A stretch of DNA of 64,000 nt, taken from positions 54,219 through 118,218 of IMG/VR virus record IMGVR_UViG_3300045988_168611; one strand, 5' to 3'. The notes under the pieces are model-generated. The model was not told where the DNA came from. It did no database searches and saw nothing but the letters and a program-made list of their open reading frames with translations. This DNA comes from a virus. Below, piece after piece: positions 1,874-57,868 of the stretch. Numbering within the stretch: position 1 is the first letter of the stretch; each line of letters opens with the position of its first letter. Position numbers and translations under genes: made by a program.

Positions 1874-1890
1874 TGTGTGCATGCGCACTA

Positions 1891-2721: not shown

Positions 2722-2729
2722 GTTGCTGG

Positions 2730-4598: not shown

Positions 4599-4615
4599 AG
4601 GCGTGCCTCCTTTTT

Positions 4616-4641: not shown

Positions 4642-4649
4642 TTTGTGGA

Positions 4650-4703: not shown

Positions 4704-4709
4704 TCAGTG

Positions 4710-6416
4710 TCACTTGGTCATGCCGAGGATGCGAGAGCCCGTACTGGGGTCGATCGTCTGCATGTGATGAGTGAAACTCTTAGCGCTTTCGCGCAAGGAG
4801 TTGTACCAGTTGTCTGGGACAGAGATTGGTACGTAATAGAGGTTCTCAGGAACCTCAAGGTGGTACGAACCGGGCCACCACTCGAAGTCGGTGATGACCA
4901 GGTTGAGTCGACGCTTGAGCGTCTGGTGTTCGTTAATGAGCTTGTAAATCTGCTCATAATCGGTACCCCCGCTCACCTTGGGCACGGCAGCAAACTGCTT
5001 CCATACCTGAGTGATAGAGCGATTCTTGATGCGAAGGCGCACAGGTGTCGACATGACGTGCGAGAAACTCGTGAAGTACAAATCCACGCCCATTCGCTGA
5101 GCGAACTGGATGAGCATCTTGATCGTGTCCTCGTAGTTCTCCGTGGAAATCGATCCAGACGTATCCAGGTAAATGTGAATGTCTGGCATGTACTTGCGGG
5201 AGACAACCTTGCCTGGCTTATTCGGGTCGTTCGGCTGACGCCTATTGGCTCGAACAAAGCTCGTGCTCACATTCCTGATGGAATTGAGAGACTGATTGAC
5301 CTTCGACATGCGCGTGAGAACTCGCATGACCGACTTGTAGATGTCGACAGGTCTGGTGGGTCGCTTGCGGAACACCACACGACCGCTACGGCCCGCTTGT
5401 TGCTGTGCGTTGGACAGGCTGTTGGCAGCCTGTACAGACGCCTTTTGCTGGGCGCGTGCCAGCGCTGTCAGCTTGCTGAGCTGACCCGGCGTGATGAGCT
5501 TGACCGGGTTGTGGAGGGACTTCATGATGAGATCCCACTCAGCGTTGATCTTGCGCATCGACGCCCTGGCATGAGCTTCGACGTTGATGAGAACCAACGT
5601 ACGAGGCAGTGCCAGCTCAGCGATGCTGAATGGCAGCATGCCGCATGTTTCAGGCGCACCAGGCTGGTTAGTCTGCTGCATATGGGTCCACGTACTGAGA
5701 GCCCACATGAGCACACGTGCGAACGAGTACTCATCGAGGGCCTGCGAGTCATTCGCTCGCAGAATCAGAGACTCAGTGAGGCCGTTCAGGTCAATTTTGT
5801 CGAACTGCTGGAACATCCGGTTGTTAGCCGGAGTAATGTTCGATGCGATCTTGCTGAGCTCGCCACGTAGCCATGTCTTGAAACTGTCGAATTCTGCATC
5901 TGTGCGGAACCAGAAGCCGATTGTGTGCGGATGGAACGTCCATCCCAGGGACACCAACAGGAGGTCCGTACCGGCATTGCCAGCAAGTACATCCTTAGCG
6001 GTAGGCATCACGTCGCTCTGCGTGGTGTACAGAGCCTTGCTGGGATCAGGGAGCTTACAACGCGCAGCTGCCTGGGTGATGAACGCTTCGTCGATAGGCG
6101 ATGATGCGGACGGAATCCATCGAACAAGAGACTGTTCGAAGATCGCACCCATAGTGGCTTGTGCGTCTGCATCGAGGACTTCGCCAACGGCTCGAAGAAG
6201 GAGGTCGTTCACTTCGTCAGAGTCACAGTCGCGTCCGTCGATCGTCAGATCGACATGACCGCCTGGAGTGAGTGGCTCGAAGATGGTCTGTGTGATCATC
6301 GTTTCGAGTGTAGCGAGGGGTTCGCAATCACCCGTGAAAGGGGCGATGGGAACATACTGGTCGATATGATTGGGCTTTTGCCCGGTGAGGGTAATAGATG
6401 GAGAAGCCATCGTCAC
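4710..6416 (-). CDS. vWA (MIDAS) domain protein, presumed partner of the adjacent MoxR ATPase
   Basis: The C-terminal segment IHIYLDTSGSIS is a DxSGS MIDAS motif. It sits next to an AAA_5/MoxR-type gene. The N-terminal ~380 aa are unassigned. Confidence 0.7.
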   Translation of the reverse strand: MTMASPSITLTGQKPNHIDQYVPIAPFTGDCEPLATLETMITQTIFEPLTPGGHVDLTIDGRDCDSDEVNDLLLRAVGEVLDADAQATMGAIFEQSLVRWIPSASSPIDEAFITQAAARCKLPDPSKALYTTQSDVMPTAKDVLAGNAGTDLLLVSLGWTFHPHTIGFWFRTDAEFDSFKTWLRGELSKIASNITPANNRMFQQFDKIDLNGLTESLILRANDSQALDEYSFARVLMWALSTWTHMQQTNQPGAPETCGMLPFSIAELALPRTLVLINVEAHARASMRKINAEWDLIMKSLHNPVKLITPGQLSKLTALARAQQKASVQAANSLSNAQQQAGRSGRVVFRKRPTRPVDIYKSVMRVLTRMSKVNQSLNSIRNVSTSFVRANRRQPNDPNKPGKVVSRKYMPDIHIYLDTSGSISTENYEDTIKMLIQFAQRMGVDLYFTSFSHVMSTPVRLRIKNRSITQVWKQFAAVPKVSGGTDYEQIYKLINEHQTLKRRLNLVITDFEWWPGSYHLEVPENLYYVPISVPDNWYNSLRESAKSFTHHMQTIDPSTGSRILGMTK

Positions 6417-17789: not shown

Positions 17790-20700
17790 TTACTCTTGTT
17801 CCGGCTTTTGTTCTGGGATCGTATTCATCCAGTTGGACTCATACGCATCGCAGAACATCTGAGCATAAGTGTCCAGATCCAGTTGCTCGATGAGAGCGCG
17901 GCGCTGATCCTCGCTCAGACACATGAGATCCTCGTTGAGAACCATCATGTGCCAGGTAGGCTCGATACCGGTGATCTTGCGGATGGAAATATCCTGATCA
18001 ACCGGAGCCTGCTGGATGCTGTACTGATGCGCAGTCATTGCATCTGGCGCATAGCCGTTAGCGATCATGATCGCATTGGCGGTTGCGTCAGTGCGCACCA
18101 CAGGAGCGTCGCCGCGCTTCTTGCGAGACTGGGCCACTGTGGCGTTGACTTTCCAGGCTCCAGCAGCACGCAAAGAGACTGCGCCCTCGGTGCCTGGCTT
18201 GACAACGAACACTCGGTTGTAGTGCTGGAGCGCTCGCGGGTTGCGAGCAGCCAGCTCAGGAGAATCCTCCTGATCAGCCGGGATGGGATCAGCCGCGTAG
18301 TGGAAGGTGAGCATACCAGGGGATGCTGCGATCACGTTCTGGAAGAGAAGCAACGCTTCGACGCTGTCCTCCTGATGCGCAATAGCCGTCATGATGTCAC
18401 GCGCAGTATCTAGCTCAACTGGCTTGTTGATCAGCTCTGGATTCGTCACCGCGATAGCTCGTAGATACACAGCCATTGCTCGATCGAGAGCAGCGGGGTG
18501 CGCCAACGAGTTCGTGGGTGATGGCTTACGCCAACATGCCAGAGATGAGCCGGACGCGCTGAGAATCTTCGCATCCTGAGGTTTGGCAGTACCGTCTGCA
18601 TACGCAGGTGGCACAGCCAGCTCGATACGGTTGTTCGAGTCCTTGGAGACCAGAAGGAGCTCTTCGGGTTCAATCAAGACATGGATGCGCTCAGATTGCT
18701 CATCGAGCACTCGGTTGTTTGTCTCTAGGTCGATGTCTGCTGAGTACAGACCGTCGGTGTTCGTGGAGATGATGCGAGCACCTTCAAGAGTCTGAGCCTG
18801 TCCGATCATCCAGGAGAACAACTGGCCGATCAGCCTCATGGAGATGATCATGTTGTTCATGCGGATGGGCGAGCCTTCGAACTCAGTGTCACCTGCACCA
18901 GAAGCGCTGTTGAGCAGTAGCTTGACACCGCTTCGTTTGGAGCTGAACATGTCTCGCTCATCAGCAGTGATGGAGGGATCCTTCATCAGCTGACCGAATC
19001 GTTCTTTGTCGAGGTAGAGCTTGCCATAGCGGTCCTCACCCAACGCCTCGTTGTAAAACGCGGAGAGGTTGGTGAGCAGCAAGGGGTAGTACGACGAGAA
19101 GTCCTCGTGGACGGCCTTTGCGACCGATGTCATCGCGTACTTGGGATCAAGCTTGGTCGACCCGTCGCTACGCTTGACGAAGAGTTCCTTGTTGCGTACC
19201 GGTTTGAAGAACGCACCTCGCTCCGGCTTGGGCGACGACTTGCTCATCAAGACCTGTTGCCAAGGAATGACCTGCCCTCCCTGACTATCTGGCAGAGTGA
19301 CACGAATGCTCTTGCGGATGGCCATGGCTTGCTCTGGTTCGGGTAGATCCCGAACCTGGAGAGTGTCAATGACTGCGTCAATGAGATCTCGCAGAGCATT
19401 TGCCTCAGCGTTGTGATCCTTGAAAAGGATCATATTTGCCTCAGCACCATGGATGCCACCGGTTGAGAACGTCGCGAAACACGATGTCGGTGTACCGTCC
19501 GCTCGGAAGTAGGGGACGTTGGTGGCGCGCTTGGGGATTTCATTAAGCCTGTAGGCTCCGATGACCCCATCGCCGTCGACATTGTTACAGTCTGGATCCA
19601 GGCTGTAATCTTCCGCGTATGCCTTGCTTCCGTTGAAGTTCTTGCCTCGGATGCTCGCGTAGTATTCGTAGACTTCATTGAAAGCAGCGCGAGCACGGTT
19701 GTCTTCGATGTTCTCGTAGAAGAAGCTCTTGGCCAGTTCGAGAACGTCGAACTGTTCGATACCCAGTTCCTGGGCACGCTGCTTGGATGGATACATGAAC
19801 GACACCGTTTTGATGTCCTTCAGCCTCTCGTAGGGCGCGAGAACGCGCGCAACGAACTTGGCTGAGGTTGAGTCAGGGGTGAGGCGATCGCGTCTGACGC
19901 GGTTTGGTCGACAATCTGGCTTTGACTTGGAACCGTCGACAGCCTGATAGACAGTCTCAGGGTAATCGACCATGAGCGCATGCTTGAGGTCGAAACCACC
20001 TGAGTACGTTGGGTGATCAGCCAGATATGCCAGGTTGACGACATCGCTCACGTTGTAAGCGATAAGTTCAACCAGGTCATCGATTGTTTCGATGATCGAG
20101 TCATGCTTCAATCGATCAGATTCGAGGATCTGATAACCCAGCATGCCGAGTAGGCGCTTGAGGCCCACACGTTGCTGCTTCTCATTGAAGCGTGCGATGT
20201 CGAGGTGTCGGCCAGAATGCAGCATGGCCCGCCTGACCTTGTTGGCGGTTCCGTCCCAGCCCTTACCGTTAGCAACAGCAGAAGAGGTGAGGTACGACGG
20301 CATCTGGCGGATGTATTCATCCGTGAAGAGCGCGTCGTTGTGTCGACGGATCTCAGCGGCAGTGACAGGTGTGGTGCGCTGGAACGCAAGCTTGCATGTG
20401 TCCATCATCTCTTCGTAGATACGACGTTTTTCATCGTCTGTCGAGGCGAGCATGGCACGCTCATGGGCCTGGCGGACAGGCTCTTGAATGCTTTCCATGA
20501 CGCTTGCGAGATAGATGGCCATGAGGGTCGTATCGTAGTTGGCGGAGTTGTAGCCACACACGAACGGATGAGTCTCAGGATCGTAGTTCGGATCTGTGTC
20601 ACACACAGGTCGATACTCTCGCAGGTACGTGCTCTGGGAACGTGGGTCGTTCACAGAAGCTGCATCGCTGAGCCCAATGATGTGAGCCAGAGTGTGGTTG

Positions 20701-20981
20701 GCTTGCCACGTACTTAGGTTATGCAACCGTAGGATGGGGTTTTCGTCTGGCTTCCACAGGCGAGCCCATGCCGGATTGCGCTTGAGGATAGCCATGAGCA
20801 CCGTGTGGTGGTCCAGGTCGCGGCGACGCAGCGCATCACCAACGGGGGTGCCCACGTCGACGAGATAGAACACATTGAGAGCGCGGGTTTCACGGTCGAA
20901 GAAAGCGACGGTGAAGACGTTTGTCAGTGACTCGATGTCCCAGAAGACGAATCGAGCTTTTTTATAGGTGGTTCGCTTCAT
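17790..20981 (-). CDS. Family B DNA polymerase with 3'-5' exonuclease domain
   Basis: Exo I FWDIES, Exo II NSANYD, Exo III YNVSDV. Pol A DFSSYYPLLL, Pol B KLLLNSASGA, Pol C TNTDGL. Confidence 0.85.
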   Translation of the reverse strand: MKRTTYKKARFVFWDIESLTNVFTVAFFDRETRALNVFYLVDVGTPVGDALRRRDLDHHTVLMAILKRNPAWARLWKPDENPILRLHNLSTWQANHTLAHIIGLSDAASVNDPRSQSTYLREYRPVCDTDPNYDPETHPFVCGYNSANYDTTLMAIYLASVMESIQEPVRQAHERAMLASTDDEKRRIYEEMMDTCKLAFQRTTPVTAAEIRRHNDALFTDEYIRQMPSYLTSSAVANGKGWDGTANKVRRAMLHSGRHLDIARFNEKQQRVGLKRLLGMLGYQILESDRLKHDSIIETIDDLVELIAYNVSDVVNLAYLADHPTYSGGFDLKHALMVDYPETVYQAVDGSKSKPDCRPNRVRRDRLTPDSTSAKFVARVLAPYERLKDIKTVSFMYPSKQRAQELGIEQFDVLELAKSFFYENIEDNRARAAFNEVYEYYASIRGKNFNGSKAYAEDYSLDPDCNNVDGDGVIGAYRLNEIPKRATNVPYFRADGTPTSCFATFSTGGIHGAEANMILFKDHNAEANALRDLIDAVIDTLQVRDLPEPEQAMAIRKSIRVTLPDSQGGQVIPWQQVLMSKSSPKPERGAFFKPVRNKELFVKRSDGSTKLDPKYAMTSVAKAVHEDFSSYYPLLLTNLSAFYNEALGEDRYGKLYLDKERFGQLMKDPSITADERDMFSSKRSGVKLLLNSASGAGDTEFEGSPIRMNNMIISMRLIGQLFSWMIGQAQTLEGARIISTNTDGLYSADIDLETNNRVLDEQSERIHVLIEPEELLLVSKDSNNRIELAVPPAYADGTAKPQDAKILSASGSSLACWRKPSPTNSLAHPAALDRAMAVYLRAIAVTNPELINKPVELDTARDIMTAIAHQEDSVEALLLFQNVIAASPGMLTFHYAADPIPADQEDSPELAARNPRALQHYNRVFVVKPGTEGAVSLRAAGAWKVNATVAQSRKKRGDAPVVRTDATANAIMIANGYAPDAMTAHQYSIQQAPVDQDISIRKITGIEPTWHMMVLNEDLMCLSEDQRRALIEQLDLDTYAQMFCDAYESNWMNTIPEQKPEQE

Positions 20982-29468: not shown

Positions 29469-30071
29469 TTAGGCGTCCTTGTTGGCCTCGGGATCTTGGT
29501 CTGCGAGGTGGACGTAGGTGGGCATCGCCACGACACGGATGTATGTGTCGGGGTCGATGTTGGACGGCGTCATTCGATATTCCGGTGGAAGCATCAACGC
29601 GATAAACGTGTCGTGAATGCGCTTACCGTCATTATCGCGGCGCAGGATCTCGTCTTGCACGCGAACGAGGATGTTGTTCTCGTCGGGCGGTAGCGAGATG
29701 TTGCCTTCTTCTGCGTTGATTGCTAGGTTCTCGGCAGCTGGGACGACGATCGTCGTCATGATGTCCTCGTTTTCGAGGACGTTCAGGATGCCCTCATCGT
29801 CAACGAGGCGGGTGTTGCGCCCGTTCTTCTTGAGCCACCCATTCAGGTAGGCATTGTTCGTGACGACATTGACCTCGACATGGGGGATGTCGATGAGAGT
29901 ACTGATGTCGTTATCATTGCCGATTGGCTGCTTGGTGTCGCTTGCGACGTGTGGGAGAAGTGCAAGATTCATCTGCGCGATAGTCTCCGCTACGGTTTCC
30001 CCGAGCTGGAACACTTTGGTGGTGGGCTCGGTCGCAACAGCGATGGTAATCGTGTTGTTGGTGTCGGTCAT
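29469..30071 (-). CDS. Hypothetical protein (200 aa)
   Basis: Start trimmed to ATG 30071, which follows ACAGGAG. Confidence 0.6.
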   Translation of the reverse strand: MTDTNNTITIAVATEPTTKVFQLGETVAETIAQMNLALLPHVASDTKQPIGNDNDISTLIDIPHVEVNVVTNNAYLNGWLKKNGRNTRLVDDEGILNVLENEDIMTTIVVPAAENLAINAEEGNISLPPDENNILVRVQDEILRRDNDGKRIHDTFIALMLPPEYRMTPSNIDPDTYIRVVAMPTYVHLADQDPEANKDA

Positions 30072-30104
30072 ATAGATGGCTCCTGTCTGTCGTTTTCTAT
30101 GGTT

Positions 30105-30134
30105 CTTATCTGGCCATGTATTGGCCACGATAAG
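30105..30134. promoter_or_regulatory. Palindromic operator-like site CTTATCTGGCCA-n5-TGGCCACGATAAG
   Basis: Lies about 35 nt upstream of the 30071 start. It belongs to the same CCAGATAAG family as the sites at 32417-32548 and 50668-50791. Confidence 0.45.
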
Positions 30135-30661
30135 ACTCTTCTCAACTGCTCGGCTCGCCAGCGGCGAGCTGATCTGTTGGGACGAAATCATTGCAGGAAT
30201 CATTTTTTGAAATGATTTCCATCTTTCGATGAAAAGCCCGGTGCCACCTGCGGTGGCACTCGATGTATCGGAGCATGTGGAACAGACAGCCCGAGGCAGG
30301 GGTGGGTTGTTCCACATGCGATCCAGCGATTCTTATTGATCCGACTGATTATGCACTCGTGTTGAGACTTGTGAGAGTCTCAGTGGGATACGTTTGCGCC
30401 ATGTCGGATGGGATCTGGCGTTTATTACTGCTTGCTGTTGCTCGTATGAGGTTGTTGAGACCTACCGTGTATTCTGTTTGTTATGTACGGGTCGCATATT
30501 GCGTGCATATTTGGTTGCACACTAGATGTTAATAACCTTATGAGCAGTGTTGGTACGGGGTGCATCCACCCCTGTATTTCCAGTCACTGTATTTCCTGTG
30601 ATGGAACCTGTGGTGACCGTAGTGACACTCGGTACAGCCTGTGGATGTACGGTTACCGAAT

Positions 30662-30742
30662 CCTGTTGCTCTCTATTGTGTGTAACTCTTACGTTTTTGC
30701 GCGAAGCATCAAAAACGTAAGAGTTAGGTGACGAGCAACAGG
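30662..30742. repeat. Nested inverted repeat (10-bp outer and 16-bp perfect inner arms)
   Basis: Inner arms TAACTCTTACGTTTTT (30683-30698) and AAAAACGTAAGAGTTA (30711-30726). Outer arms CCTGTTGCTC (30662-30671) and GAGCAACAGG (30733-30742). Confidence 0.7.
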
Positions 30743-30899
30743 TGTTTCTTAGGGTCTGAGTGATGAGACCGTGAATCGTATATGTTGATGAGGCAGGTGT
30801 GATTTTATCTTGTGCCTCCCTCAGCGACATATACGACCAAGGTGGTTTGTAGTCATCGACTTGTGAATCGTAGATTAGGGTCGATGATTTGTTTCCCAT

Positions 30900-31640
30900 C
30901 GCCTTGGGACACGGGACTCATCGCGAAGACCCGATGGCACAGATGCATCAACAATGCGTCTGTGCCGTGTTTCAAGCGTCTGGAACAGACGCGCAGAGGG
31001 CACCCGAGACAGCCCCAGTGGGGCTGTGGAGGGCAAGCCTGTGAAGCGATAGCGAAACAGGCGCAGTAAGAGCCCCAAGGAGCAACGCGACGCAGGGGTG
31101 AGGGAGGGGTCGAAGCGGAGCGAGACCACGACCGAAGGGCTGTCGGCTATGCCGACCGAAGGAGTACGCGTAGCGTACGACTGAGCCAGCCCCTCTTATG
31201 CCCTTTTTTACCTGATCCACCGCCAGCGACCATTAGGGAGCGTAAGGTGGGCAAAGTGGCGTAACGAAGGGGAAAACAGGCGATACCACCCCCGGTGGGA
31301 CCACGGGTCGTTGAGGCGGTACCGCCTCCGAGACGTGGTACCACGGGTGCCTGTTTTCCCTGTTAAGACGGGGTTTAGGTGAGACCATGGTCCGAGCTTG
31401 CTTGGCACCGTGGTCTCACCATGCGGCACAGCCGCTGTAACAGGGTGACGAACCGAGCGAGCGCAGGTTTGGCACACTGCCCTGACCCCCGTCTTGCCGG
31501 GTCGTGAAACGGCCCGTCAGCGCCGTGAAGGAGCGCAGTGCAACTGGGCTCCGTTGACACTCTGTAAGGCCCTGAGACAGGCTGTTGTGGCACCGTATGG
31601 TGATATGGCAGCCTGGTTCAGGGCCGATTGTTTCTGTGCT
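30900..31640. ncRNA. Candidate large structured ncRNA (GC-rich, helix-dense island in a gene desert); family unknown
   Basis: No credible ORF. Many perfect local and nested helices, for example 31270-31281 with 31349-31360, and 31378-31390 with 31408-31420. One T-G pair weakly favours the plus strand. Confidence 0.3.
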
Positions 31641-32407
31641 CTTCAGACATTGAGACAGCAGCTGTTACGGCAGCTGCTGGTGAGTACACCAGATGGAGTT
31701 CCATCTGGTGTCTGAGTACCCTGTTTCAGTACCTGTTAGAAGAGCGCAGAAACATGTTGGCGAAGCCTCCATTAACAGTCCACCGGATAACACGCCATTG
31801 GCTGATACACATGCATCTGAGCAGGTGAATCAGCCAATGTTTCAGAGCGTTTATATAGAGTTATTCGGTGGCATATTTCAGCCACATGTCACAGGGCTAT
31901 AACAACGCTGTTTTCGAAGCAGTGGAGAGCCCTGTTACATGTGTGAATACCGTGTTGTTGCGTGGTTGTTGTATGGCTGCCTATTCCCCATCTGAGACTA
32001 TCTCTCTTTTCGAGCGTGTCTCAGATGGGGGTACAACAGATAAAACAGAACGTGAATCACCACATGTGACAGCCTTCGTATAAACGCTTGCGTAGCAACG
32101 TTGTAGATGTGGTGTGCAGCAGCTTTGTATTCGTTGTTTTGCCTAGAGGCTGAGAACCCATTTATCTGTGCCTCGTATCAACGTCTTGAAACAGCCCAGT
32201 AACAGCGCTGTAGCGCTGTTGTAGCATGCGTCCGTATCACGGTTGTGACCATCGATCGATACAGCCTAAATAAACGTTGTGATGCATGGTTATGCGTGTC
32301 TGTGACAGCCTTTAGCCCCGGTTGATGACTGCCTGAATGCGCAGCTGCAACCGGGGCTGTGATGCAGCGTGGCTGCGTATCTGGCTGTGCTTAGACGTTT
32401 GTAGCTG

Positions 32408-32775
32408 GCGCAATGGTGACCAGATAATGGCCAATGAAAGACCAATAAGTGGTCAATGGTGACCAGTTTGGAGCCGGATAAGCGCCAGAGGATAGTAAGA
32501 GGCAGCAGCAGGTCTTTATCTGGTCCAATGATGGCCAGATAAAGGCGCTTTGTTGGCCGCTCTATGACCGGTGGTACCCTATGGTCGTTATCGGGTTCTT
32601 TGTTGGCCTCATAACGGCCCATTATTAGACCATGTAAGAGCCAGGAGACAGCCCGGATCAATGATGGGTCAACAATGGGCGGAAGATGCGCCAGTGTATG
32701 GCGCAATGGTGACCATAGTGTGGCGCTTTCCGGGTCAGGAAAAGCCTAGTAGATGCTGGTGCAATGGTGGTCATG
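32408..32775. repeat. Iteron array: 6-7 copies of CAATGGTGACCA interleaved with CCAGATAAG-type sites
   Basis: Copies at 32411, 32455, 32526 (CAATGATGGCCA), 32659 (variant), 32704 and 32762 (CAATGGTGGTCA). CCAGATAA/TTATCTGG sites at 32420, 32474, 32516 and 32534. Confidence 0.6.
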
Positions 32776-33029
32776 AAAGCGCCAGGTGGCTGCCAGCATC
32801 AACGCAGCATTGCCAGCGTCGAATGAAAAACCCCCGGACACAGGAGCCTGTGTCCGGGGGTTTGCGTGTTGCTGCTGTGGTCAACATGTATGTGGTTTCT
32901 GCTTCGGTTGAGGGACTGAATACGGTATAATGCTGTGGGCCTACGCACACTGACTACCTGCTCAGTTTTAGTACGTAGAAGCCAATCGATCAAGATCAAT
33001 GACAAGACCGAAAGAGAGGTGTGATCTCT

Positions 33030-34757
33030 ATGAAGATCCCTCGTCAATCCAACAAGCAGCTCATTCGACCTGGCTTGCGTCGGCTGCCTGTGATGGCAGC
33101 CCTGACTGTAGCGATGGGCGCATCTGTTGCAGTGATGCCGACTACCGCTGCAACCGCCGCGCCTGCCAGCGCAGAAAGTACTGCGAGCACTGCCGGGCTA
33201 CCGGCTGCTGTCGCAAGTGGCTACAAGATGACGTTCCACGATGAGTTCGACGGCGACAAGCTCGATACCTCTAAATGGGGTTATCAGTACGGCTGTTTCG
33301 ATCCTGCGCAGCGATCGCAAGCGCAGTACACCGACTCTCCCGATAACGTCTCTGTGCGAGATGGTTATCTGAATCTGACGGCCAGGTACTCGCCCATGAA
33401 GACCAAGTGGGACGGCTCGCAGATCGCGCGCACCTGCAAGGACGGCAGCACGACCTATGATGCCCCGTTCACGTCGGGCATGGTCACCACAAAAACAAAA
33501 GACGGCAAGGTGTTGTATGCCGCGCCAGGAACCGGCTTCTATGCCGAGGCGCGCGTCAAGCTTCCGACCGCACGTTCGTCCTGGTCTGCTTTCTGGGGTA
33601 CCGGTACCAAGGGTGGCTGGCCCGGTAACGGTGAGATCGACGTGTTCGAGTCCAAGGGCTACGACCCGAGCTTCTTGATGAGCAACATCCACACTCCCAG
33701 GGTCGGCAACCCCAAGAAGACCCAGCAACACCAGGGCATGATGAAGGGCGACACTGCGACTTCTCAGAGCGAGTTCCATACCTACGGTGTCTTGAAGACC
33801 GCTGATGCCATTGAGTTCTACTTCGATGGGAACATGACTCACCGCGTGAAGATGCAGGATATGAAGGGCGCGAGCAACCCCTTCGCGGATCCAGAGAACG
33901 GTCTGGTGTTGAAGCTCAACCAGATGGTGGGCGGCAGCTACTTGGCCAAGCACGACAACTGGTCGGATAAGACCTTTGTCGATGCAAGCAAGTACGCGGA
34001 TGACTACAAGAGCGCTGATGGCGCGGGTTCGACCATGTATGTCGACTACGTGCGTGTGTATGAGCCGAAAACCCAGGCAGATCAGCCTGCCCAGCCTGCT
34101 CCTGCCCCTGAGCAACCGACTCCGACGCCTGCTCCCGAGCAGCCCGCGCAGCCTTCTGAGCCTACGCCCACCCCTGCTCCAGAACAGCCTGCACCTGAGC
34201 AGCCAACTCAGCCTGAGACCCCGGCCCAGCCTGAACAACCTGCGGTTCCAGAAACGCCTGCTGCACCTGAGACTCCGGCTCAACCCGAGCAACCTTCTCA
34301 GCCAGAGACTCCTGCCCAGCCTGAGCAGCCCGCTCCTGCTCCGACTCCAGAGCAGCCAGCACCTACGCCTGCCCCTGAGCCCTCTCAGCCTGCGCCTGTG
34401 ACTCCGGCACCTGCGAAGCCCACCCCTGAGCAGCCTGTTCCGGCCAAGCCAACGCCTGCACCGGCGAAGCCAACTCCGGCCAAGCCTCAACCAGCACAGC
34501 CTGTTCCGTCTCAGCCGTCTCAGCCGTCCGATAACCAGACTGACCAGAACAGCCAGCAGTCTGGACAGGCAGAGCAGAACAGCCAGCGGTCTGAACAGGA
34601 GGGGCAGAGCAAGCAGACCAAGCCAGAGCAGCCCAAGAAGTCACAGAAGCCTAGTGCTGATCGTTTGGCGAACACGGGTATGACCTCGTGGTATCGCCCG
34701 ATCGTTGTCATGTGGCGAAGCTTCTGTGGCTGGATCACCAGCTGGTGGTTCTGGTGA
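33030..34757 (+). CDS. Secreted GH16 glycoside hydrolase with Pro-rich stalk and LANTG sorting-like signal
   Basis: Signal peptide with AAPASA. The GH16 catalytic motif GEIDVFE (ExDxxE). A ~190-aa PEQPA/PTPAP repeat stalk. C-terminal LANTG followed by a W-rich hydrophobic tail. Start at ATG 33030 follows AAAGAGAGG. Confidence 0.85.
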   Translation: MKIPRQSNKQLIRPGLRRLPVMAALTVAMGASVAVMPTTAATAAPASAESTASTAGLPAAVASGYKMTFHDEFDGDKLDTSKWGYQYGCFDPAQRSQAQYTDSPDNVSVRDGYLNLTARYSPMKTKWDGSQIARTCKDGSTTYDAPFTSGMVTTKTKDGKVLYAAPGTGFYAEARVKLPTARSSWSAFWGTGTKGGWPGNGEIDVFESKGYDPSFLMSNIHTPRVGNPKKTQQHQGMMKGDTATSQSEFHTYGVLKTADAIEFYFDGNMTHRVKMQDMKGASNPFADPENGLVLKLNQMVGGSYLAKHDNWSDKTFVDASKYADDYKSADGAGSTMYVDYVRVYEPKTQADQPAQPAPAPEQPTPTPAPEQPAQPSEPTPTPAPEQPAPEQPTQPETPAQPEQPAVPETPAAPETPAQPEQPSQPETPAQPEQPAPAPTPEQPAPTPAPEPSQPAPVTPAPAKPTPEQPVPAKPTPAPAKPTPAKPQPAQPVPSQPSQPSDNQTDQNSQQSGQAEQNSQRSEQEGQSKQTKPEQPKKSQKPSADRLANTGMTSWYRPIVVMWRSFCGWITSWWFW

Positions 34758-47132: not shown

Positions 47133-49775
47133 ATGACTTCTCGTACGACTAAGCACAAGGGTCGCAAGGCTGTTGCTACTGCCGCGTTGATGGCGTTTGC
47201 TGGCGCGGCCCTCGTGGGTGCAAATCCCGCGTTTGCCGATAACGGCGGCTCTGGCGGTACCACCGGTGGCAACCTGGGTGCTGCCGGAAATTTGGGCATC
47301 CGCTACGCGTTTTTCGATGATGCTGTGGCGAACCCGCAGGGTGGCCAGGCTCTGGTTTCCCAGGGATGGGGCCAGGACAGTATCAACTGGTTCATGGATA
47401 AGGCCGGTATCACTGGTACCTACATGGCCAACCAGTTCCAGACTTCGTGTGGCGAGGCTCTGAACGAGGCTATCTCTCGTGGCCAGGCTGCTGGTGGATC
47501 CAACGTCACGGCTCGTGTGGTCGGCATCATGTATGCCACCAACAACGGCAACAACGGTGGCGCTGCTGCGCGCTCTGCGCAGTACTTCTACGACAAGGCC
47601 GAGGAATGGCGCACGGACGGCTACCCCGGCATGTACAACCGTTCGGCTGAGATCGCAGGTTTCATCTACAACCTTGCGCAGACCGGTGTCGGCAAGGCGT
47701 CTGGTTTGCCGAATGATGGCAACGCCTACGGTGAGCCGTATGTGTCCACTGCCTGTGTGGCCGTCAACAGTGAAGAGCCTGTGGGCATCTCCGCTCCGCC
47801 TCCGCCGCCTACCTACGACTTGACGGTGACGACCGATCATGCGTCGACCGTGACCGAGGCTGGCAGCACTGTGCCGGTCTACGACACGATCCATGCATCG
47901 CGTGGTGGCAAGGGCGTGGATGAGAACGTCGACGCTGAGGTTGTTCTGACCTACGAAGGCCCTGAGGGCAACAAGTCTGTGACCAAGACTGTGTCGATCG
48001 CTAACAACGGTGATACGAAGTCGCCTGAGTTCACTCCGGCTGACTTTGGCTGGACCTCGTGGCCTGCCACCGGCGAGGGCAAGAGCTTCTGGTTCGACGT
48101 GAAGGTCGCCAAGCAGGGCAACATGAACGAAGCGGTGGACACCGCCGATCGTGAGCCGTCTGAGTCTTGGACGGTTAAGCCCAAGAACCCTGTGAAGGTT
48201 CTGACCAACGGTGAAACCGGTTCTGGTCTGACCGAGAAGGACGTGTTGGCCAACAACATGTTCTACAACGCGAACATCACGGCCCACTCCAACGGTTACG
48301 CCTCGCAGCTGACCATCACTGATACGGTGAACACCGCCGATGTCACGATCGGTGGTAAGGATGCAGACGACGCTGGTCGCGTGCAGGTGCTCGGCCCCGA
48401 TGGTCAGCGCATTAAGGCTGATGTCACCATTGATCGTTCGATCGAGGGCAAGGTTGTCATCTCCGGTACTGTGAAGGACATGGAGAAGCAGGGCAACTAC
48501 ACCCTGATGGTTCCGACCTACACGAAGGCGACTGGTGCTGACTACCGTATCCCGGATGACTCCAAGGTGTGCTACACCGAGGCCCAGGATCACTGCCTGG
48601 CTGGTAACTCTGCTGAGACCGGCAAGGTGACCCCGGATCCTGACAAGGTGTGGACTGCTGATGAGACCGAGGCGCGTACGACTGCTGACCCCGAGCGCAC
48701 GAACCAGAAGGGTGTGGACCAGAAGTCCTTCCTGCCCGGTGACAAGGTCTCGGCTGTGGTCAACGATCACATCGCCGCGTACCTCCAGTACGGCCTCGAA
48801 GAGTACAGCATCACTGATGACTGGTCGGATGGCCTGACCTACGTCACGATGGACGGTGCTCCGAAGGTCTACTTCCAGGGCAACGATGTCACGGATCTGT
48901 TCGAGATCACCAACGACATCGAGAAGGGTGTGACCACCGCGAAGGCGAAGCCTGAGTTCCTGGCCAAGACTGCTCGTATGACTGAGCCCGGTGAGGTCAA
49001 GCTGGTTATTTCTGGTCAGTTCCGTCGTGACTACGACACGGACGGGGAGACGAAGCAGCTTATCAACAAGGGTTCTGTCACGTGGAACAACGAGTCTAAG
49101 GTCACCAATGAGCCGCCTATCTTCACGGTGACTCCCAAGCCCGCGATCGACGTGGAGAAGTTCACGCTGTCTGAGGGTCTTGAGGCTGGTGACCGCGACG
49201 AGGCCGATAACGCTCTGACTCTCGCGTCTGCGAAGGACGAGACTCAGATCGGCTTCCTGGTGAAGAACACCGGCGAGGCTGACCTCGTGAACGTCTCGCT
49301 CACCGATGCGACGCATGAGGGCACCACCGGTAACGTCACCGGTATCGTTTGTGAGATTCCGGCTGAGCAGGCTGCTGCTGATCCGGCGAATGCCGGTGTG
49401 ACCGGTGGCGCGACTGCGCAGACTGTGAAGGTTGCTGGTGACAAGATCGGTACCCTGAAGGTCGGTCAGTCTGTGTCCTGTGTCGGTACTCTGACCGGCG
49501 TTGAAGAGGGCACGCTGCACTCTGACACTGCCACTGTGGTTGGCGAGTCCATCCACAACGGGAAGAAGGTCTCTGACTCTGACGACTGGCACGCGAAGGT
49601 GGACTCTCCTGAGCAGCCCGCTCCGAAGGGCGCTGTGACCGGTGAGGCCGCAGGTGCAAACACTGGTCTGCTGGGCGTTCTCGGCGCTCTGATGGCCGCG
49701 ATCGGTCTGGGTGGCGGCGCTACTTACCTGAACAAGGCGCGCCGCAACAAGGCTCAGGTTGCCGTGAAGCACTGA
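47133..49775 (+). CDS. Large secreted surface protein (880 aa) with C-terminal sorting-type signal
   Basis: Signal peptide ends ANPAFA. Beta-rich repeats. The C-terminus is KGAVTGEAAGANTG, then the TM segment LLGVLGALMAAIGLGGGA, then the basic tail KARRNK. Confidence 0.8.
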   Translation: MTSRTTKHKGRKAVATAALMAFAGAALVGANPAFADNGGSGGTTGGNLGAAGNLGIRYAFFDDAVANPQGGQALVSQGWGQDSINWFMDKAGITGTYMANQFQTSCGEALNEAISRGQAAGGSNVTARVVGIMYATNNGNNGGAAARSAQYFYDKAEEWRTDGYPGMYNRSAEIAGFIYNLAQTGVGKASGLPNDGNAYGEPYVSTACVAVNSEEPVGISAPPPPPTYDLTVTTDHASTVTEAGSTVPVYDTIHASRGGKGVDENVDAEVVLTYEGPEGNKSVTKTVSIANNGDTKSPEFTPADFGWTSWPATGEGKSFWFDVKVAKQGNMNEAVDTADREPSESWTVKPKNPVKVLTNGETGSGLTEKDVLANNMFYNANITAHSNGYASQLTITDTVNTADVTIGGKDADDAGRVQVLGPDGQRIKADVTIDRSIEGKVVISGTVKDMEKQGNYTLMVPTYTKATGADYRIPDDSKVCYTEAQDHCLAGNSAETGKVTPDPDKVWTADETEARTTADPERTNQKGVDQKSFLPGDKVSAVVNDHIAAYLQYGLEEYSITDDWSDGLTYVTMDGAPKVYFQGNDVTDLFEITNDIEKGVTTAKAKPEFLAKTARMTEPGEVKLVISGQFRRDYDTDGETKQLINKGSVTWNNESKVTNEPPIFTVTPKPAIDVEKFTLSEGLEAGDRDEADNALTLASAKDETQIGFLVKNTGEADLVNVSLTDATHEGTTGNVTGIVCEIPAEQAAADPANAGVTGGATAQTVKVAGDKIGTLKVGQSVSCVGTLTGVEEGTLHSDTATVVGESIHNGKKVSDSDDWHAKVDSPEQPAPKGAVTGEAAGANTGLLGVLGALMAAIGLGGGATYLNKARRNKAQVAVKH

Positions 49776-49813
49776 TGTGCTAATATGGTCACTGTTCTGA
49801 GAAGGTGATCAGT

Positions 49814-49864
49814 ACGTAACCCCCGTGGTAGCTCTTCGCTGCTGCGGGGGTTACGTGTATTTTG
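49814..49864 (+). terminator. Terminator of the surface-protein gene
   Basis: ACGTAACCCCCG (49814-49825) pairs with CGGGGGTTACGT (49845-49856), followed by GTATTTTG. Confidence 0.65.
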
Positions 49865-49941
49865 CGCATGGATGGACAGTGCCATATGTAGTAGAATGGC
49901 TCGTGTACCAGTAGAATCGCCTAAGAAAAGAGGTCTTATTG

Positions 49942-50643
49942 ATGACTGTCCCTGTGATTATGATGCCTGATGTTGACGCCGTTCCTGCTCTGATCGATCG
50001 CCGTGATGTGCCTACCTCGTTGGTCGGTTTCGTCGGTCTCAAGCGATCGGGCAAAGACACTGCTGCGCAGGGTCTTATTGCACGAGGTTGGAAGCGTATG
50101 GCGTTTGCCGATCCGCTCAAAGAGATGAGCATGAAGCTACGCGGCGTGTGGGTCGAAGTGCCAGAAGAAGCGCGTCTTGATAGCACTATTACCGTGGTGG
50201 GCGGTTTCGCCAAGTATCACGAGGTGGTCGACGCTCTGGGTATGGAGAAGGCGAAGGATCTCGTGCCTGATGTGCGCACTGTGCTCCAAACGCTGGGCAC
50301 GGACTGCGTGCGCGACACACTGGGCGAGCGAACGTGGACGGACCTGACCGGCCAGCGCGTCCAGGAAGAGCTCGCTCGTGGTGAAGCTGTGGCGCTCACT
50401 GATGTCCGGTTTGATGAAGAGTTTAACCTCGTGCATGATCTCGGAGGCATCGTCATTGGCGTGTGGCGAGGGGATCAGGATTCCCTCGATCGAGCACTGG
50501 TTGACGCATCTGTCGGGGCGCTGGGTGCTGATCACGTGTCGGAAACCAACGCGTACAGCCTGTTGCAGCGTGCCGATGTCGTGATCTGCAACTGTGGGTC
50601 TGTTGATGATCTGCATCGTGCTGTCTGGGACATTGTTGGCTAA
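49942..50643 (+). CDS. P-loop protein resembling phage deoxynucleoside monophosphate kinase
   Basis: GFVGLKRSGKDT Walker A followed by FADPLK, as in dNMP-kinase-like phage proteins. ATG 49942 follows AAAAGAGG. Confidence 0.5.
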   Translation: MTVPVIMMPDVDAVPALIDRRDVPTSLVGFVGLKRSGKDTAAQGLIARGWKRMAFADPLKEMSMKLRGVWVEVPEEARLDSTITVVGGFAKYHEVVDALGMEKAKDLVPDVRTVLQTLGTDCVRDTLGERTWTDLTGQRVQEELARGEAVALTDVRFDEEFNLVHDLGGIVIGVWRGDQDSLDRALVDASVGALGADHVSETNAYSLLQRADVVICNCGSVDDLHRAVWDIVG

Positions 50644-50667
50644 TAGTTGGTCCCAGCACTGCGCATG

Positions 50668-50791
50668 TGGCGCTTATCTGGTCATAACGTGACCTGGTAA
50701 GCGCCGTTTTGCTTGATGTATGAGGCGAATGGGTGTATCATGGCCTATAGATGACCAGATAAGAACCACTCGTCATCTGGTTATGTGGTCC
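50668..50791. promoter_or_regulatory. Two CCAGATAAG-type palindromes flanking the presumed promoter of the RHH-ParM-sortase operon (parC-like or operator)
   Basis: GGCGCTTATCTGGTCA-n5-TGACCTGGTAAGCGCC spans 50669-50705 and is followed by GTTTTG, so it may also terminate the upstream gene. ACCAGATAAG...ATCTGGTTAT spans 50753-50785. Confidence 0.45.
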
Positions 50792-50821
50792 ACTATCAAG
50801 ATCGAGAAGAGAGAGGTGTTT

Positions 50822-51280
50822 ATGCCTAAGCGTTTCACTGGGTCTGTCCCACGCCCGACGGCGCGCCGTTTCCGGGTCTCTGTGCCCGATGCTGATGAGT
50901 CTGTGCTGGCTTGGATCGGCGCGCAGTCGGATCTCAGCGCGTCTGTGCGCAGCCTGATCCGAGAGGCGATCGAGCGACACGGGTACCGTGACGCGACGTG
51001 CTATCCGGTGGTTCAGCAGCCGCGTCGAGGCCGTCCGCCTAAATCAACAGAGCAGCTTACAGAACAGGCAGAACAGCTTGAGACTGTCGACGGTCACCCG
51101 ATCGCTCAGTCGATCGGCATACTGATGCCGAAGCCGGAGCTGGATCACGAGCTTCTCATGGTTCCTGCGTCGCATGAAGATGTCACCGATGAGCCTGAGA
51201 TTCTTGATGATTCTGACGGTTCCGATGATGCTGTCAACCCCCTGAACGATATGGAAGATGTGCTTGGCGCACTGCGTTGA
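50822..51280 (+). CDS. Putative ribbon-helix-helix DNA-binding protein with acidic tail (ParR/CopG-like adaptor candidate)
   Basis: RRFRVSVPDADESVLAWIGAQSDLSASVRSLIREAIERHG fits a beta-strand/helix/helix RHH pattern. Sits immediately upstream of the ParM-like gene. Start at ATG 50822 follows GAGAGAGG. Confidence 0.5.
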   Translation: MPKRFTGSVPRPTARRFRVSVPDADESVLAWIGAQSDLSASVRSLIREAIERHGYRDATCYPVVQQPRRGRPPKSTEQLTEQAEQLETVDGHPIAQSIGILMPKPELDHELLMVPASHEDVTDEPEILDDSDGSDDAVNPLNDMEDVLGALR

Positions 51281-51309
51281 GTCCAGACAACAAAGAAAGT
51301 GAGTAACCT

Positions 51310-52635
51310 ATGACTTCTGCAATCCCTGCCTCTCTGAACACGATGTCGCTTCTTGGCGGTATCGATGTCGGTAACGGCTACGTTAAGGGTCTGGTGCGGG
51401 GGACGCGCACCGATAAGGCTGGTAAGCCTGTGATCGACACGATCGATCTCCCCAGCGGCGTGACGCGGGTGACTCGGCCTAACTCTCTACCAAAGGAGGA
51501 TACTGAGGCCGAAGACGTGTGCGCCAATGATCTGTATAACCACCTCGATGTGTCGTTCTCGTCCTCAATGGTCTCAAACTCGTACCGACACCTGTTTGGT
51601 AAGCGAGCTCTGACCGCGAACGGCGCGTTCGATGAGTTCAACGTTGTGGGCAGACGGTCGAAGGCCGAGCAGGAGCTATCTAAGGTGCTGATCCTTGGTG
51701 TGTTCGCTGCGAAGGCTCTGCGTGACTATGTGGCTGTTGCTAAGACGCTGCCTGTATCGGAGCTTATTGTCGACGCGTGCGTGGCTGTTGCTCTGCCGAT
51801 CGATGAGTACATGCGTCACCGCACCAGCTACAGTGCTGAGTTCATGAACGGTACGCACCTGGTCACCGTGCACAACTTCGAGACGCCTGTCGTGGTGCGC
51901 ATTACGTTCCGTGATGTGGTGGTGATGGCCGAAGGTGCATCTGCGCAGTGGGCCATCACGGAGAAGGGTGTGCCGCTCATGCAAGCGATGCTTGCTGACG
52001 TGCGTTCTCGTGGTCTCGCACTGGAAGGTGTCACGGCAGAAGATGTCCTGGCAGCTCGTAATACGATCGGTATCGACATCGGTGAGGGAACGATTAACTT
52101 CCCGGTGTTTACCAACGGCAAGTTCAACGCAGACGCCTCTGTGACGTTCGGTGAAGGCTACGGCACTGTGCTGACCCGTGCGTTGGAGTCCATGGACGCG
52201 GAAGGCTTCCACACTGGTTTCACCAGCCGGAAGCAGCTGGCGGATTTCCTCCAGCGTGAGCCCTCGCCGTTGAAGTGGCACTTCTACAACAAGGTGCGTG
52301 CCTACGTCGACCGTGAGATCGAGTTCTTCGCACGAGCTGCGTCTGACCAGTTCGGTCGTGTTCTCGGCGTTGTTGGTGCGACGACTGAGGTCGTATTCGT
52401 GTTCGGCGGTGGCTCTGGCCCTGTGAAGGACGCGCTGTATCCGCTCTTGCTGAGCAAGGTGGCAGAAATGAACACCGAGGACGCAATGCCGGTCTTGTAC
52501 TTGGATGCGTCTTATTCTCGCTCTCTGAACCGTGAGGGTCTGTACTCGATCGCTCAGGCGTCTGCTGCGCAGTCCAGCAAGGCTGCGAAGCCTGCTAAGC
52601 GTGCTGCCAAGAACAGCACGAAGAACGGAGAGTGA
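51310..52635 (+). CDS. ParM/StbA-like actin-fold ATPase
   Basis: Phosphate-1 GGIDVGNGYVKG, phosphate-2 IGIDIGEGTINF and adenosine motif VFVFGGGSG. Confidence 0.75.
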   Translation: MTSAIPASLNTMSLLGGIDVGNGYVKGLVRGTRTDKAGKPVIDTIDLPSGVTRVTRPNSLPKEDTEAEDVCANDLYNHLDVSFSSSMVSNSYRHLFGKRALTANGAFDEFNVVGRRSKAEQELSKVLILGVFAAKALRDYVAVAKTLPVSELIVDACVAVALPIDEYMRHRTSYSAEFMNGTHLVTVHNFETPVVVRITFRDVVVMAEGASAQWAITEKGVPLMQAMLADVRSRGLALEGVTAEDVLAARNTIGIDIGEGTINFPVFTNGKFNADASVTFGEGYGTVLTRALESMDAEGFHTGFTSRKQLADFLQREPSPLKWHFYNKVRAYVDREIEFFARAASDQFGRVLGVVGATTEVVFVFGGGSGPVKDALYPLLLSKVAEMNTEDAMPVLYLDASYSRSLNREGLYSIAQASAAQSSKAAKPAKRAAKNSTKNGE

Positions 52636-52639
52636 GCAG

Positions 52640-53851
52640 ATGTCTACGTCTACGAGTCCATGGGATGATGCTTTGCGCCGTTACAGCGCGCGCGAGCACA
52701 CGCATGATGACATCGTGACTGAGTCTGGTGTGGCGGCAGCTGATGTGACAGCTGCCGCCACCGGCGCTGCTCTGCCTAGTTTCGATGACATCGTGAATGG
52801 CGATGGGACTAGCCCTGACAAGACCGAGTCTTTGGTCGTTCCATCGAGTCTCGATGAGGTGCTGCACGATGCTGGGGTTGCCCACGGTAAGCAAGGCACG
52901 CAGAACCCGAAGAACAAGCGGAGCAAATGGCGCGCTGCTCTGACAGCGATCGTGTGGCTTATCGTCACGAGTCTCATCTGTGGCGGTCTTTACCTGATCT
53001 ATCGCGCACATGATGAGGCTCAGGTCGAGGAAGAGCTTCCGGTGCCTGCTCAGACATATCAGGATGAGGAAATCTCTACTGCGCCTGTTGAGGCTACTGA
53101 TGATGTGCTCACCCATGAGTGGCCGGTCGTGAACGCGGATTCGGACCAAGGCTCGAACACGTGGGAGATTAACACTGAGGATTACAGGATTAGCACGATG
53201 TCGGTTGCTCGTATGGCTCCTGGGTCTGTGTTCATCCCGGAGTCCGGCATCTACATGGAGCTTCAGGGGTCTGATTCGTTCGAGGCGTCAAATTACGGTG
53301 ATCTTCAGACGATCCATGTGCCGACTAACGTGCACCGAGGTGTTTGGTACTCAGCTGGAGCGCCTCTCACCGCATCCGATACTGGAGTTCTCACCGGCGT
53401 TCGTCCGGGGTTTGATACACCACAGTCTTCTCGTGCTGTCTCACCCGCTTCGTCCCCCTCCCTGTCTTCTTCCGATACCGTGCAGTCGGGAACACAAACA
53501 AGCTCATCACGCGCAGTGAGTATGACGGGTGGCGAGGGAACGACGTTCATCGCCTCCCATGTGGCGTGGACAAAACGGCATCGTGGGGCTCTGTACACCA
53601 TGGCGACGGATGTCTCTCAGAATGAGTTGATCTGGGTGAAAGGCTTTGATGGATCGCTGTCCACGTGGCGCGTGAGCGGCATGTGGGTGGCTGAGCATCA
53701 GGCGTTCCCGGAGGACTATTTCAGCGCTACTGGTCCGCGTCGGTTGGTGCTGACGACCTGTGGTGGCCGTGTGAACAGCTACGGTTACTACCAGCAGAAC
53801 GTGTTTCTGGTGGCAGAGCCTGTGGCTTTGGAATCAGCGATGCAGCAGTGA
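52640..53851 (+). CDS. Membrane-anchored sortase-like transpeptidase (actinobacterial class E/F type)
   Basis: TM segment ALTAIVWLIVTSLICGGLYLIY. The catalytic-domain pattern is VGVWYS..., FIASHV (His) and RLVLTTCGG (TxxTC Cys) ...NVFLVAEP. A Ser-rich insert lies between the WY and His regions. The start is 4 nt after the ParM stop. Confidence 0.65.
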   Translation: MSTSTSPWDDALRRYSAREHTHDDIVTESGVAAADVTAAATGAALPSFDDIVNGDGTSPDKTESLVVPSSLDEVLHDAGVAHGKQGTQNPKNKRSKWRAALTAIVWLIVTSLICGGLYLIYRAHDEAQVEEELPVPAQTYQDEEISTAPVEATDDVLTHEWPVVNADSDQGSNTWEINTEDYRISTMSVARMAPGSVFIPESGIYMELQGSDSFEASNYGDLQTIHVPTNVHRGVWYSAGAPLTASDTGVLTGVRPGFDTPQSSRAVSPASSPSLSSSDTVQSGTQTSSSRAVSMTGGEGTTFIASHVAWTKRHRGALYTMATDVSQNELIWVKGFDGSLSTWRVSGMWVAEHQAFPEDYFSATGPRRLVLTTCGGRVNSYGYYQQNVFLVAEPVALESAMQQ

Positions 53852-56767: not shown

Positions 56768-56859
56768 GTGCTGCTACAGGAATTGAACCTGTATCTCCCT
56801 ATTCGCAGATAAAGCAAAGACAGGTGCGGATAGAAGCTCTACCGTTGAGCTAAGCAGCT
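56768..56859 (-). tRNA. tRNA-like gene with expanded anticodon arm (possible pseudo-tRNA or insert-containing tRNA)
   Basis: Canonical D arm (GCTC/GAGC), T arm (ACAGG-TTCAATT-CCTGT) and 6 of 7 acceptor pairs. The TCTAT/ATAGG anticodon stem encloses 27 nt instead of 7, extendable to a 9-bp stem with a 17-nt loop. Confidence 0.45.
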
Positions 56860-57778: not shown

Positions 57779-57868
57779 TGGGCCAGGCAGGAGTTGAACC
57801 TGCAATGTTTCTTATGTGTCCGACGTAGCGCTCCGCCGGGTGTCTTCACCAATTCGACGCACTGACCC
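57779..57868 (-). tRNA. tRNA-like gene (type II length) with non-canonical anticodon arm
   Basis: GGGTCAG/CTGGCCC acceptor, a Leu/Ser-like D arm (GTC-GAATTGGTGAA-GAC) and a GCAGG-TTCAACT-CCTGC T arm. The only anticodon-arm fold is CCGGCG/CGTCGG with the 8-nt loop GAGCGCTA, which lacks U33. Confidence 0.45.

Follow-up and report, generated by a model that had tools for sequence, protein, structure and literature searches.

We analysed a 64,000-nt stretch of DNA (IMG/VR virus record IMGVR_UViG_3300045988_168611, positions 54,219 to 118,218), which we call the window. Coordinates are those of the window unless a relative is named, and L-numbers (L026, L031, L047 and so on) denote individual relatives. 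Within a long region without genes, positions 30896-31578 probably form the core of a stand-alone structured noncoding RNA gene, of a family that is not in Rfam 15, likely read from the plus strand and acting in trans. This region is non-coding, it is the slowest-evolving DNA of its neighbourhood, and it contains about 35-45 helices in multi-helix junctions that compensatory substitutions have preserved in three or more clades. We put about even weight on a fuller picture: an undescribed class of very large, ornate RNA, 0.7-1.0 kb long and possibly lying within a structured transcript of ~1.3 kb, which serves as a machine or as a replication/maintenance component and travels as a cassette with protein-binding repeats among oral Actinomycetota elements. 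As a machine it could be a GOLLD- or ROOL-like RNA-only assembly, a ribonucleoprotein or a ribozyme. A leader on the minus strand, a structure at the DNA level and a hidden protein gene are less likely, in falling order.

A helix-dense, GC-rich region in a gene desert

The desert spans 30072-33029, between a gene for a 200-aa protein that ends at 30071 on the minus strand and a GH16 gene that starts at 33030 on the plus strand. The original prediction, made from the sequence alone, held that there is no credible gene here, and this agrees with our finding that the longest open reading frame (ORF) has 138 aa and that ORFs overlap across all frames. The GC-rich island that it described is real as well, with a GC content of 0.60-0.645 over 30900-31600 against 0.45-0.48 on either side (200-nt windows). 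The segment 30900-31720 has a minimum free energy of -429.6 kcal/mol, compared with -329 +/- 7.8 in dinucleotide shuffles (z = -12.85; 0/20 shuffles equalled it), so folding goes beyond chance, and its minus strand reaches -380.7 kcal/mol (z = -11.4). When folding was computed in 200-nt windows, almost the entire desert exceeded the coding flanks in structure.

All of the helices that the original prediction listed were found in the sequence. They include GTCGGC/GCCGAC at 31142-31156, GTACGC/GCGTAC at 31164-31178, a 12-bp long-range helix GGGAAAACAGGC/GCCTGTTTTCCC at 31270-81 and 31349-60, a palindrome at 31313-31328, a 13-bp helix at 31378-90 and 31408-20, and two last hairpins at 31656-79 and 31686-711. 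The helix CAGCCCC/GGGGCTG is also present, at 31010-31026, one base off from where it had been placed.

Homologues and their conservation

Homologues were collected by going from the neighbouring proteins to contigs, and then with two degenerate DNA patterns drawn from invariant junctions. The neighbouring proteins led to contigs of ~105-126 kb in IMG/VR and ENA, one of them labelled human oral metagenome. In all, we gathered at least 39 distinct sequences, which fall into three or more clades; wherever a source is given, it is human-oral, and the one genome match is a 32.5-kb contig binned with an uncultured Actinomyces metagenome-assembled genome. A profile of the core searched with nhmmer finds a single copy per element, and among the matches listed it recovered no remoter relative from ~80 chance pattern matches in soil and water metagenomes. 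A blastn search of the desert and the RNA against isolates (50,697 phage records and 72,556 plasmids) gave no match.

In close relatives the desert overall aligns at 82-89%, and 30580-31480 is 95-100% identical. Within clade 1 the core is 93-98% identical and its flanks 60-88%. For clade 2, from IMG/VR, the blastn alignment of the desert is limited to 30896-31578, at 80-84%. Between clades 1 and 2 the core has 82-83% identity, versus 66-79% for the genes, which makes it the most conserved DNA within +/-7 kb. Clade 3 and further subclades come from metagenomes, with clade 3 at ~60-68% identity.

Two individual copies deserve mention. The L136 copy is without the segment matching window positions 31044-31117 and may be decaying. 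At ~3540-3587 of L106, Nextera adapter sequence (AGATGTGTATAAGAGACAG) is joined to the RNA at the end of a public metagenome contig, which is an assembly artefact.

Covariation and the conserved fold

The core (30896-31578, plus strand) was delimited by covariation and by blastn between clades, and consists of two multi-helix domains with long-range closing helices at 30993-31001/31200-06, 31066-72/31193-99, 31257-65/31516-25 and 31362-77/31483-98. An RNAalifold consensus of 21 sequences from two clades has 228 pairs, of which 96.8% are canonical; 26 pairs change on both sides, against 3-9 when the partners are slid by 1-3 columns. With 35 sequences from three clades over window positions 30856-31908, the consensus has 312 pairs, 94.0% canonical, and 95 of the 312 show two-sided compensatory change, compared with 26-39 in slid controls and 52 in shuffled ones (equalled by 0/500 shuffles). 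Because it ignores that the sequences are related, the shuffle control exaggerates significance, and the slid controls, which keep relatedness and are threefold lower, are fairer.

Individual helices show the same pattern. The closing helix that joins 31257-65 with 31516-25 covaries (U-A, C-G, U-G), and that of 31362-77 with 31483-98 is likewise supported by the covariation analysis. In the 13-bp helix, GGUGAGACCAUGG/CCGUGGUCUCACC is replaced by GGUGGUACCACGG/CCGUGGUACCACC, and by GGUGUUAACACGG/CCGUGUUAACACC in clade 3. Entire hairpins are swapped, shortened or lengthened among relatives while their position is retained, and the sequence of the unpaired junctions is almost invariant. The base changes are thus compensatory and conserve secondary structure, as is generally expected of a structured RNA, and the covariation check proposed at the outset returns a strong signal on the collected homologues.

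We also observed an invariant motif, CGACCGAAGG, that occurs twice, 21 nt apart, on either side of an invariant hairpin GUCGGCUAUGCCGAC (31131-31163). The repeated motif could be a tertiary or protein-binding motif.

Coding potential and known RNA families

Variable columns of the core fall evenly on the three codon phases (118/128/124, p = 0.81), and 117 of the 128 indel events, which are mostly of single bases, are not multiples of three. The longest stop-free run differs between relatives, from 78 to 143 codons, and every frame of 30900-31720 has stops of at least two kinds. One or more hidden protein genes, possibly with a recoded stop, could be sought in one plus-strand frame of this segment that has zero TAA, one TAG and four TGA, and gene callers put a 241-aa ORF here in one relative. 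However, the ORFs called by pipelines in the relatives are inconsistent in frame and length, there is no codon periodicity, 1-nt indels dominate, the neighbouring genes use the standard code, and the substitutions are compensatory for pairing, so that we consider a hidden gene exceedingly improbable. With no hidden gene found by translation, recoding or periodicity tests and with strong compensatory covariation, the proposal of a large structured noncoding RNA is supported.

Searching the whole window with cmscan against Rfam 15 (4227 families) at the gathering score returned tRNAs only, and 30000-33100 had no match at E<=10. Among five relatives searched at E<=0.1, four representatives of other clades gave no match for the RNA, and the only match in L063 was the IS3 ALIL frameshift pseudoknot. 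The covariance models of GOLLD, ROOL, group I/II introns, RNase P, tmRNA, OLE, HEARO and ARRPOF in Rfam 15 were unmatched, which agrees with the suggestion of a possible new class in the original prediction. The neighbouring proteins have no IscB or TnpB nuclease domains, as would go with HEARO or omega-RNA guides. We found no description in the literature, and characteristic strings are absent from the first 200 of the 408 supplementary files of a catalogue of structured RNAs from the human microbiome. In a catalogue of viral structured RNAs the motifs average 67 nt, so fragments of the RNA could be listed there unnamed.

Strand of transcription

Judging from sequence comparisons, we think transcription from the plus strand probable. 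Across three clades the RNAalifold energy is -641.7 for the plus strand versus -596.0 for the minus strand. At helix positions common to the folds of both strands in the three clades there are 250 G-U against 106 A-C cells, the pairs with intermediates number ~40 for G-U against 11 for A-C (counted from the 35-sequence pair table), and, among internal wobble positions, four have mostly G-U on the plus strand while two have A-C as a minority. Unpaired bases on the plus strand are 39% A, 26% G, 18% U and 17% C, and the hairpin loops are purine-rich (GAA, GUA, GCA and similar). An unpaired composition rich in A and G is typical of ribosomal RNA and other known folded RNAs, whereas its U/C-rich complement is not. 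A single T-G pair in the 13-bp helix had been taken as a sign of the plus strand, but the position is variable in relatives (U-G, G-G, C-G, A-G), so alone it says little on strand. An argument from one-sided changes to G-U was circular and we withdrew it.

Several points weigh against a trans-acting RNA from the plus strand. Phylogenetic depth is limited, as the sequences derive from a small group of related elements, and their relatedness is what the shuffle control ignores. With the 21 sequences of two clades, 178 pairs are common to the plus- and minus-strand folds and show no asymmetry between G-U and A-C. Promoter scans gave no convincing sigma-70-type promoter on the plus strand. At the 5' boundary of the RNA in L136, between a recombinase gene and the RNA, there is a GC-rich hairpin (2493-2519 of that relative) that the scan called a terminator; its U-tract lies on the minus strand, the one opposite to the modelled RNA. 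By eye, L058 and L047 have a homologous hairpin in the same orientation, and the scan made no call in L047. Finally, the constant link to a repeat array downstream, described below, hints at a cis or origin-related role.

Some of these points would fit a functional transcript on the minus strand, which could be a structured leader of the replication operon (from the 200-aa gene onward) or an RNA that runs from the repeat array to the left boundary. The terminator in L136 is canonical, with a 12-bp GC stem and UUUUCGUU, and lies exactly at the left edge of the conserved unit, while the homologous hairpins of L058 and L047 follow an A-tract (by eye). The minus strand folds well (z = -11.4), most helices are Watson-Crick on either strand, and the repeat array would sit upstream, operator-like. 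On the other hand, both alifold and single-sequence energies are higher on the minus strand, the 250 to 106 cells favour plus, and the unpaired bases would be 39% U and 26% C with UUC, UAC and UGC loops, which are atypical of folded RNAs. The recombinase contexts also offer no downstream gene to lead. We regard a minus-strand transcript as quite unlikely.

That the helices are nearly all Watson-Crick, with about equal stability on both strands, also bears on whether the structure works at the DNA level, as a fold of single-stranded DNA (for instance a single-strand origin, or a single-strand promoter active after transfer) or as protein-bound cruciforms. GAA and GNA triloops are very stable in DNA too, and one backbone has ArdA, a gene typical of transferred leading regions. 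The unpaired junction sequence is nearly invariant, however, there are invariant internal G-U pairs on one strand, and we know of no single-stranded DNA origin with a multi-junction architecture of ~700 nt and helices up to 260 nt apart. A role at the DNA level therefore seems very unlikely to us.

Returning to a plus-strand RNA, its A-rich junctions, GAA/GNA triloops and tandem G-A motifs suggest an RNA particle or ribonucleoprotein that would act in trans by virtue of its compact three-dimensional fold. Such a particle may benefit the mobile element, as proposed for GOLLD and ROOL. We infer that the RNA is not a cis-regulatory leader.

Extent of the RNA and neighbouring elements

The original prediction equated the RNA with the GC-rich island. 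The conserved core does coincide with the island, but the RNA is longer, as covarying helices continue to ~31871; the core and these 3' helices together give an RNA of ~0.7-1.0 kb. At the 3' edge of the core there is a hairpin of variable length (31568-31625, plus strand), whose apical part is deleted or extended in relatives and whose basal pairs are kept. The U-rich run after it was considered as a terminator and rejected, as it is the 5' strand of a covarying helix. The hairpin is followed by the long-range helix 31629-40/31743-54 (element 31629-31754, plus strand; inverted repeats I2 and I16), in which 10 of 12 pairs are two-sided and which encloses the hairpins 31656-79 and 31686-711. Next comes a conserved 3' block, AACAUGUUGGCGAAGCCUCCAUUAACAGUCCACC (31750-31784, plus strand), which contains a GGC-GAA-GCC hairpin and is common to clades 1 and 2 and L132; in clade 3 the block stands directly after the core, as UGUYGGCGAAGCCUCCAUY. 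A supposed terminator after this block in L063 turned out to be a weak palindrome beside an IS3 insertion. The last element with clear covariation is 31780-31871 (plus strand), where the helix CCACCGGAUAA/UUAUUCGGUGG (31780-90, 31861-71) surrounds the hairpin 31796-31841. Compensatory change affects 6 of 11 pairs in the helix and 11 of 18 in the hairpin, and the clade 2 version of the helix reads CCACCAGAUGAG/CUCAUCUGGUGG.

On the 5' side, a hairpin lies directly before the core (30853-30889, plus strand), with clade-specific sequence and retained pairing. Two-sided changes affect 5 of the 9 pairs in its helix (30856-66/30875-84), and by eye the arms are TCATCGAC/GTCGATGA in the window, AGTCGGT/ACCGACT in L026 and GTTGCTTTG/CAAAGCAAC in clade 2. 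Further upstream are structured modules (30662-30836, strand unassigned; inverted repeats I1, I3 and I20), namely a helix 30662-71/30733-42 around a 17-bp hairpin at 30683-30726, a hairpin at 30753-75 and a stem 30776-97/30815-36. Clade 2 has equivalent upstream hairpins with other sequence, with TTCTTTTT after the counterpart of 30683-30726. The modules are absent in serine-recombinase contexts, where shared sequence begins ~100 nt before the core. They may be in one transcript with the RNA or may be separate elements. At 30080-30330, upstream of the 200-aa gene, we noted a strongly structured segment (z about -7 to -8), conserved at 94-100% among close relatives, that may serve the replication operon as a leader or control region.

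Downstream of the last covarying element, a 16-bp hairpin CACATGTCACAGGGCT/AGCCCTGTTACATGTG (31883-31943, strand unassigned; inverted repeat I8) opens a run of ACAGCC...TAAACG repeats. This ~22-nt motif, ACAGCC-N4-5-TAAACGYTG, has five direct copies in 31880-32320, and ACAGCC is enriched here, with 14 of its 62 matches in the window falling in the 3-kb desert. The copies may be protein-binding sites or unusual promoters. They are followed by an iteron-like array (32397-32782, strand unassigned; direct repeats D1 and D3) with four to six repeats of GCGCAATGGTGACCAG that carry the near-palindrome TGGT-N-ACCA. A perfect 17-bp palindrome at 32828-32863 (strand unassigned; inverted repeat I4), conserved in clade 1, has an A-tract before it and a T-tract after it, and is by these features a predicted bidirectional terminator that closes the non-coding region before the GH16 gene.

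Host elements and mobility

The window reads as a large mobile element. It has a D5/P4-type primase, a polymerase-like 1063-aa protein, a RecJ-like nuclease, and SNF2 and MgsA ATPases, together with plasmid-like cargo at 47133-53851 that comprises an AgI/II-type C2-domain (adhesin-like) protein, a dNMP kinase, an actin-like ALP (51310-52635) and a sortase-domain protein. IMG/VR flags the element as viral. The 1063-aa protein (17790-20981, minus strand) has no relative in the 50,697 phage records but has relatives of 35-43% identity in megaplasmids of Streptomyces, Gordonia and Rhodococcus, so the element may instead be of plasmid or phage-plasmid type; the Streptomyces homologue, whose record was the sole one examined, adjoins a P4-type primase. 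The host element resembles a plasmid or an integrative element no less than a phage. An idea that the region marks a telomere or physical end was dropped because the contig ends near it are not at one position.

The RNA occurs in quite different settings. In L132 it lies directly after a large serine recombinase gene with ArdA nearby (1863-3524 and 4212-4745 of that relative), and in L136, L047 and L058 the upstream flank of the RNA is similar to that in L132. L047 combines this L132-type upstream side with the GH16 downstream side of the window. These mixed flanks, with the L132-like upstream sides, indicate that the RNA lies at a recombination boundary and is moved as one piece. The clade-3 loci and L058 have nothing in common with the window except the RNA, and no protein gene is a constant neighbour. 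Its presence in unrelated backbones, namely phage/plasmid-like elements of ~105-126 kb, where it adjoins a replication module, and elements with a large serine recombinase and ArdA, makes the RNA an autonomous module. The 200-aa and 375-aa neighbouring proteins were considered as partners of the RNA and rejected, as neither has a relative in Pfam, PHROG or PDB and other backbones lack both.

IS3-family elements (rve domains) were seen just downstream of clade-3 copies, at 5834-8300 of L063 and 299-1000 of L136; in L063 the insertion lies ~60 nt past the conserved 3' block.

The nearest tRNA genes are ~25 kb away (56.7-63.5 kb), and the proximity to tRNAs that the original prediction invoked does not apply here. 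Two Rfam tRNA matches of ~90 nt, at 56768-56859 (minus strand, 41 bits) and 57779-57868 (minus strand, 34.7 bits), were not called by ARAGORN, and the first has by eye an extra ~20 nt in the anticodon region.

Association with a repeat array and replication genes

In every backbone for which downstream sequence is available, the repeat array accompanies the RNA. Related repeats lie downstream of the RNA in clade 2 (including L031), L047 and L132, with one copy in L136 and L106, and in all backbones a plus-strand RNA points to the iteron-like array 0.5-0.8 kb downstream. The RNA and the array could therefore be one portable replication or partition module, in which the RNA is transcribed toward the iterons and serves as a pre-primer, as an activator through its very transcription or as a copy-number regulator, broadly as with ColE1 RNA II. 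That RNA and repeats stay together in clades 1 and 2, L047 and L132 despite different upstream genes is consistent with such a module, and so are the primase, polymerase-like, RecJ and helicase genes that adjoin it in the large elements. Plasmid-type genes, including the actin-like ALP, point the same way, as do the homologues of the 1063-aa protein, which occur only in actinobacterial megaplasmids. Yet GC skew does not switch at the desert, the RNA is not consistently accompanied by an initiator gene, conservation is higher in the core than in any of the genes around it, and the repeats could be operators instead of an origin. Primer RNAs, as far as is known, do not require a nearly invariant sequence or folds with several junctions and A-rich loops. 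On balance, we hold an origin- or maintenance-linked RNA, the chief rival reading, to be possible but doubtful, and favour a stand-alone, trans-acting RNA.

Comparison with known large RNAs

To our knowledge, only a handful of bacterial or phage RNAs this large and complex are known, namely GOLLD, ROOL, OLE, raiA and HEARO, and each known large RNA has opened a line of work. The candidate's human habitat is well sampled, its conservation exceeds that of the surrounding genes, and it moves between unrelated mobile elements. The 728 database relatives of the 375-aa neighbouring protein indicate that the elements carrying the RNA are common. Habitat, abundance, conservation and mobility together make the candidate tractable for structure determination, and it allows a direct test of how large RNAs serve mobile elements, including ties to replication and maintenance modules.

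Like ColE1 RNA II, the candidate is predicted to be a long folded transcript in the non-coding control region of a replicon, directed toward a downstream cis element. The two have no sequence or structural similarity, and the candidate is far more conserved and more complexly folded than is expected of a primer such as ColE1 RNA II.

OLE is, like the candidate, an ornate and highly conserved bacterial noncoding RNA of ~600 nt or more. It is chromosomal, in extremophilic Firmicutes, whereas the candidate is on mobile elements, has no Rfam match and has no OLE-associated protein genes nearby. ROOL, of roughly 0.6 kb, and the candidate are both large ornate RNAs of mobile elements from host-associated microbiomes, with strongly conserved junction sequence; the candidate is unmatched in Rfam, longer (~0.7-1.0 kb) and in another genomic setting. 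Both ROOL and GOLLD are found in phage or prophage DNA, often beside tRNA genes. The candidate resembles GOLLD in being several hundred nucleotides long, with many helices in multi-helix junctions, on phage-like mobile elements, and free-standing rather than cis-regulatory. It differs from GOLLD in that it matches no Rfam model (E<=10), is found in oral Actinomycetota-type elements, is not beside tRNAs and is linked to a repeat array; its setting comprises elements that IMG/VR classes as viral and others with recombinase and ArdA genes. Recently, GOLLD, ROOL and OLE were shown to build unprecedented RNA-only assemblies, which are homo-oligomers in the case of GOLLD and an oligomeric complex in that of ROOL (PMC12286853). 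Most likely the candidate is of the same kind as GOLLD and ROOL, a large, ornate RNA borne by mobile elements, while being a member of neither family.

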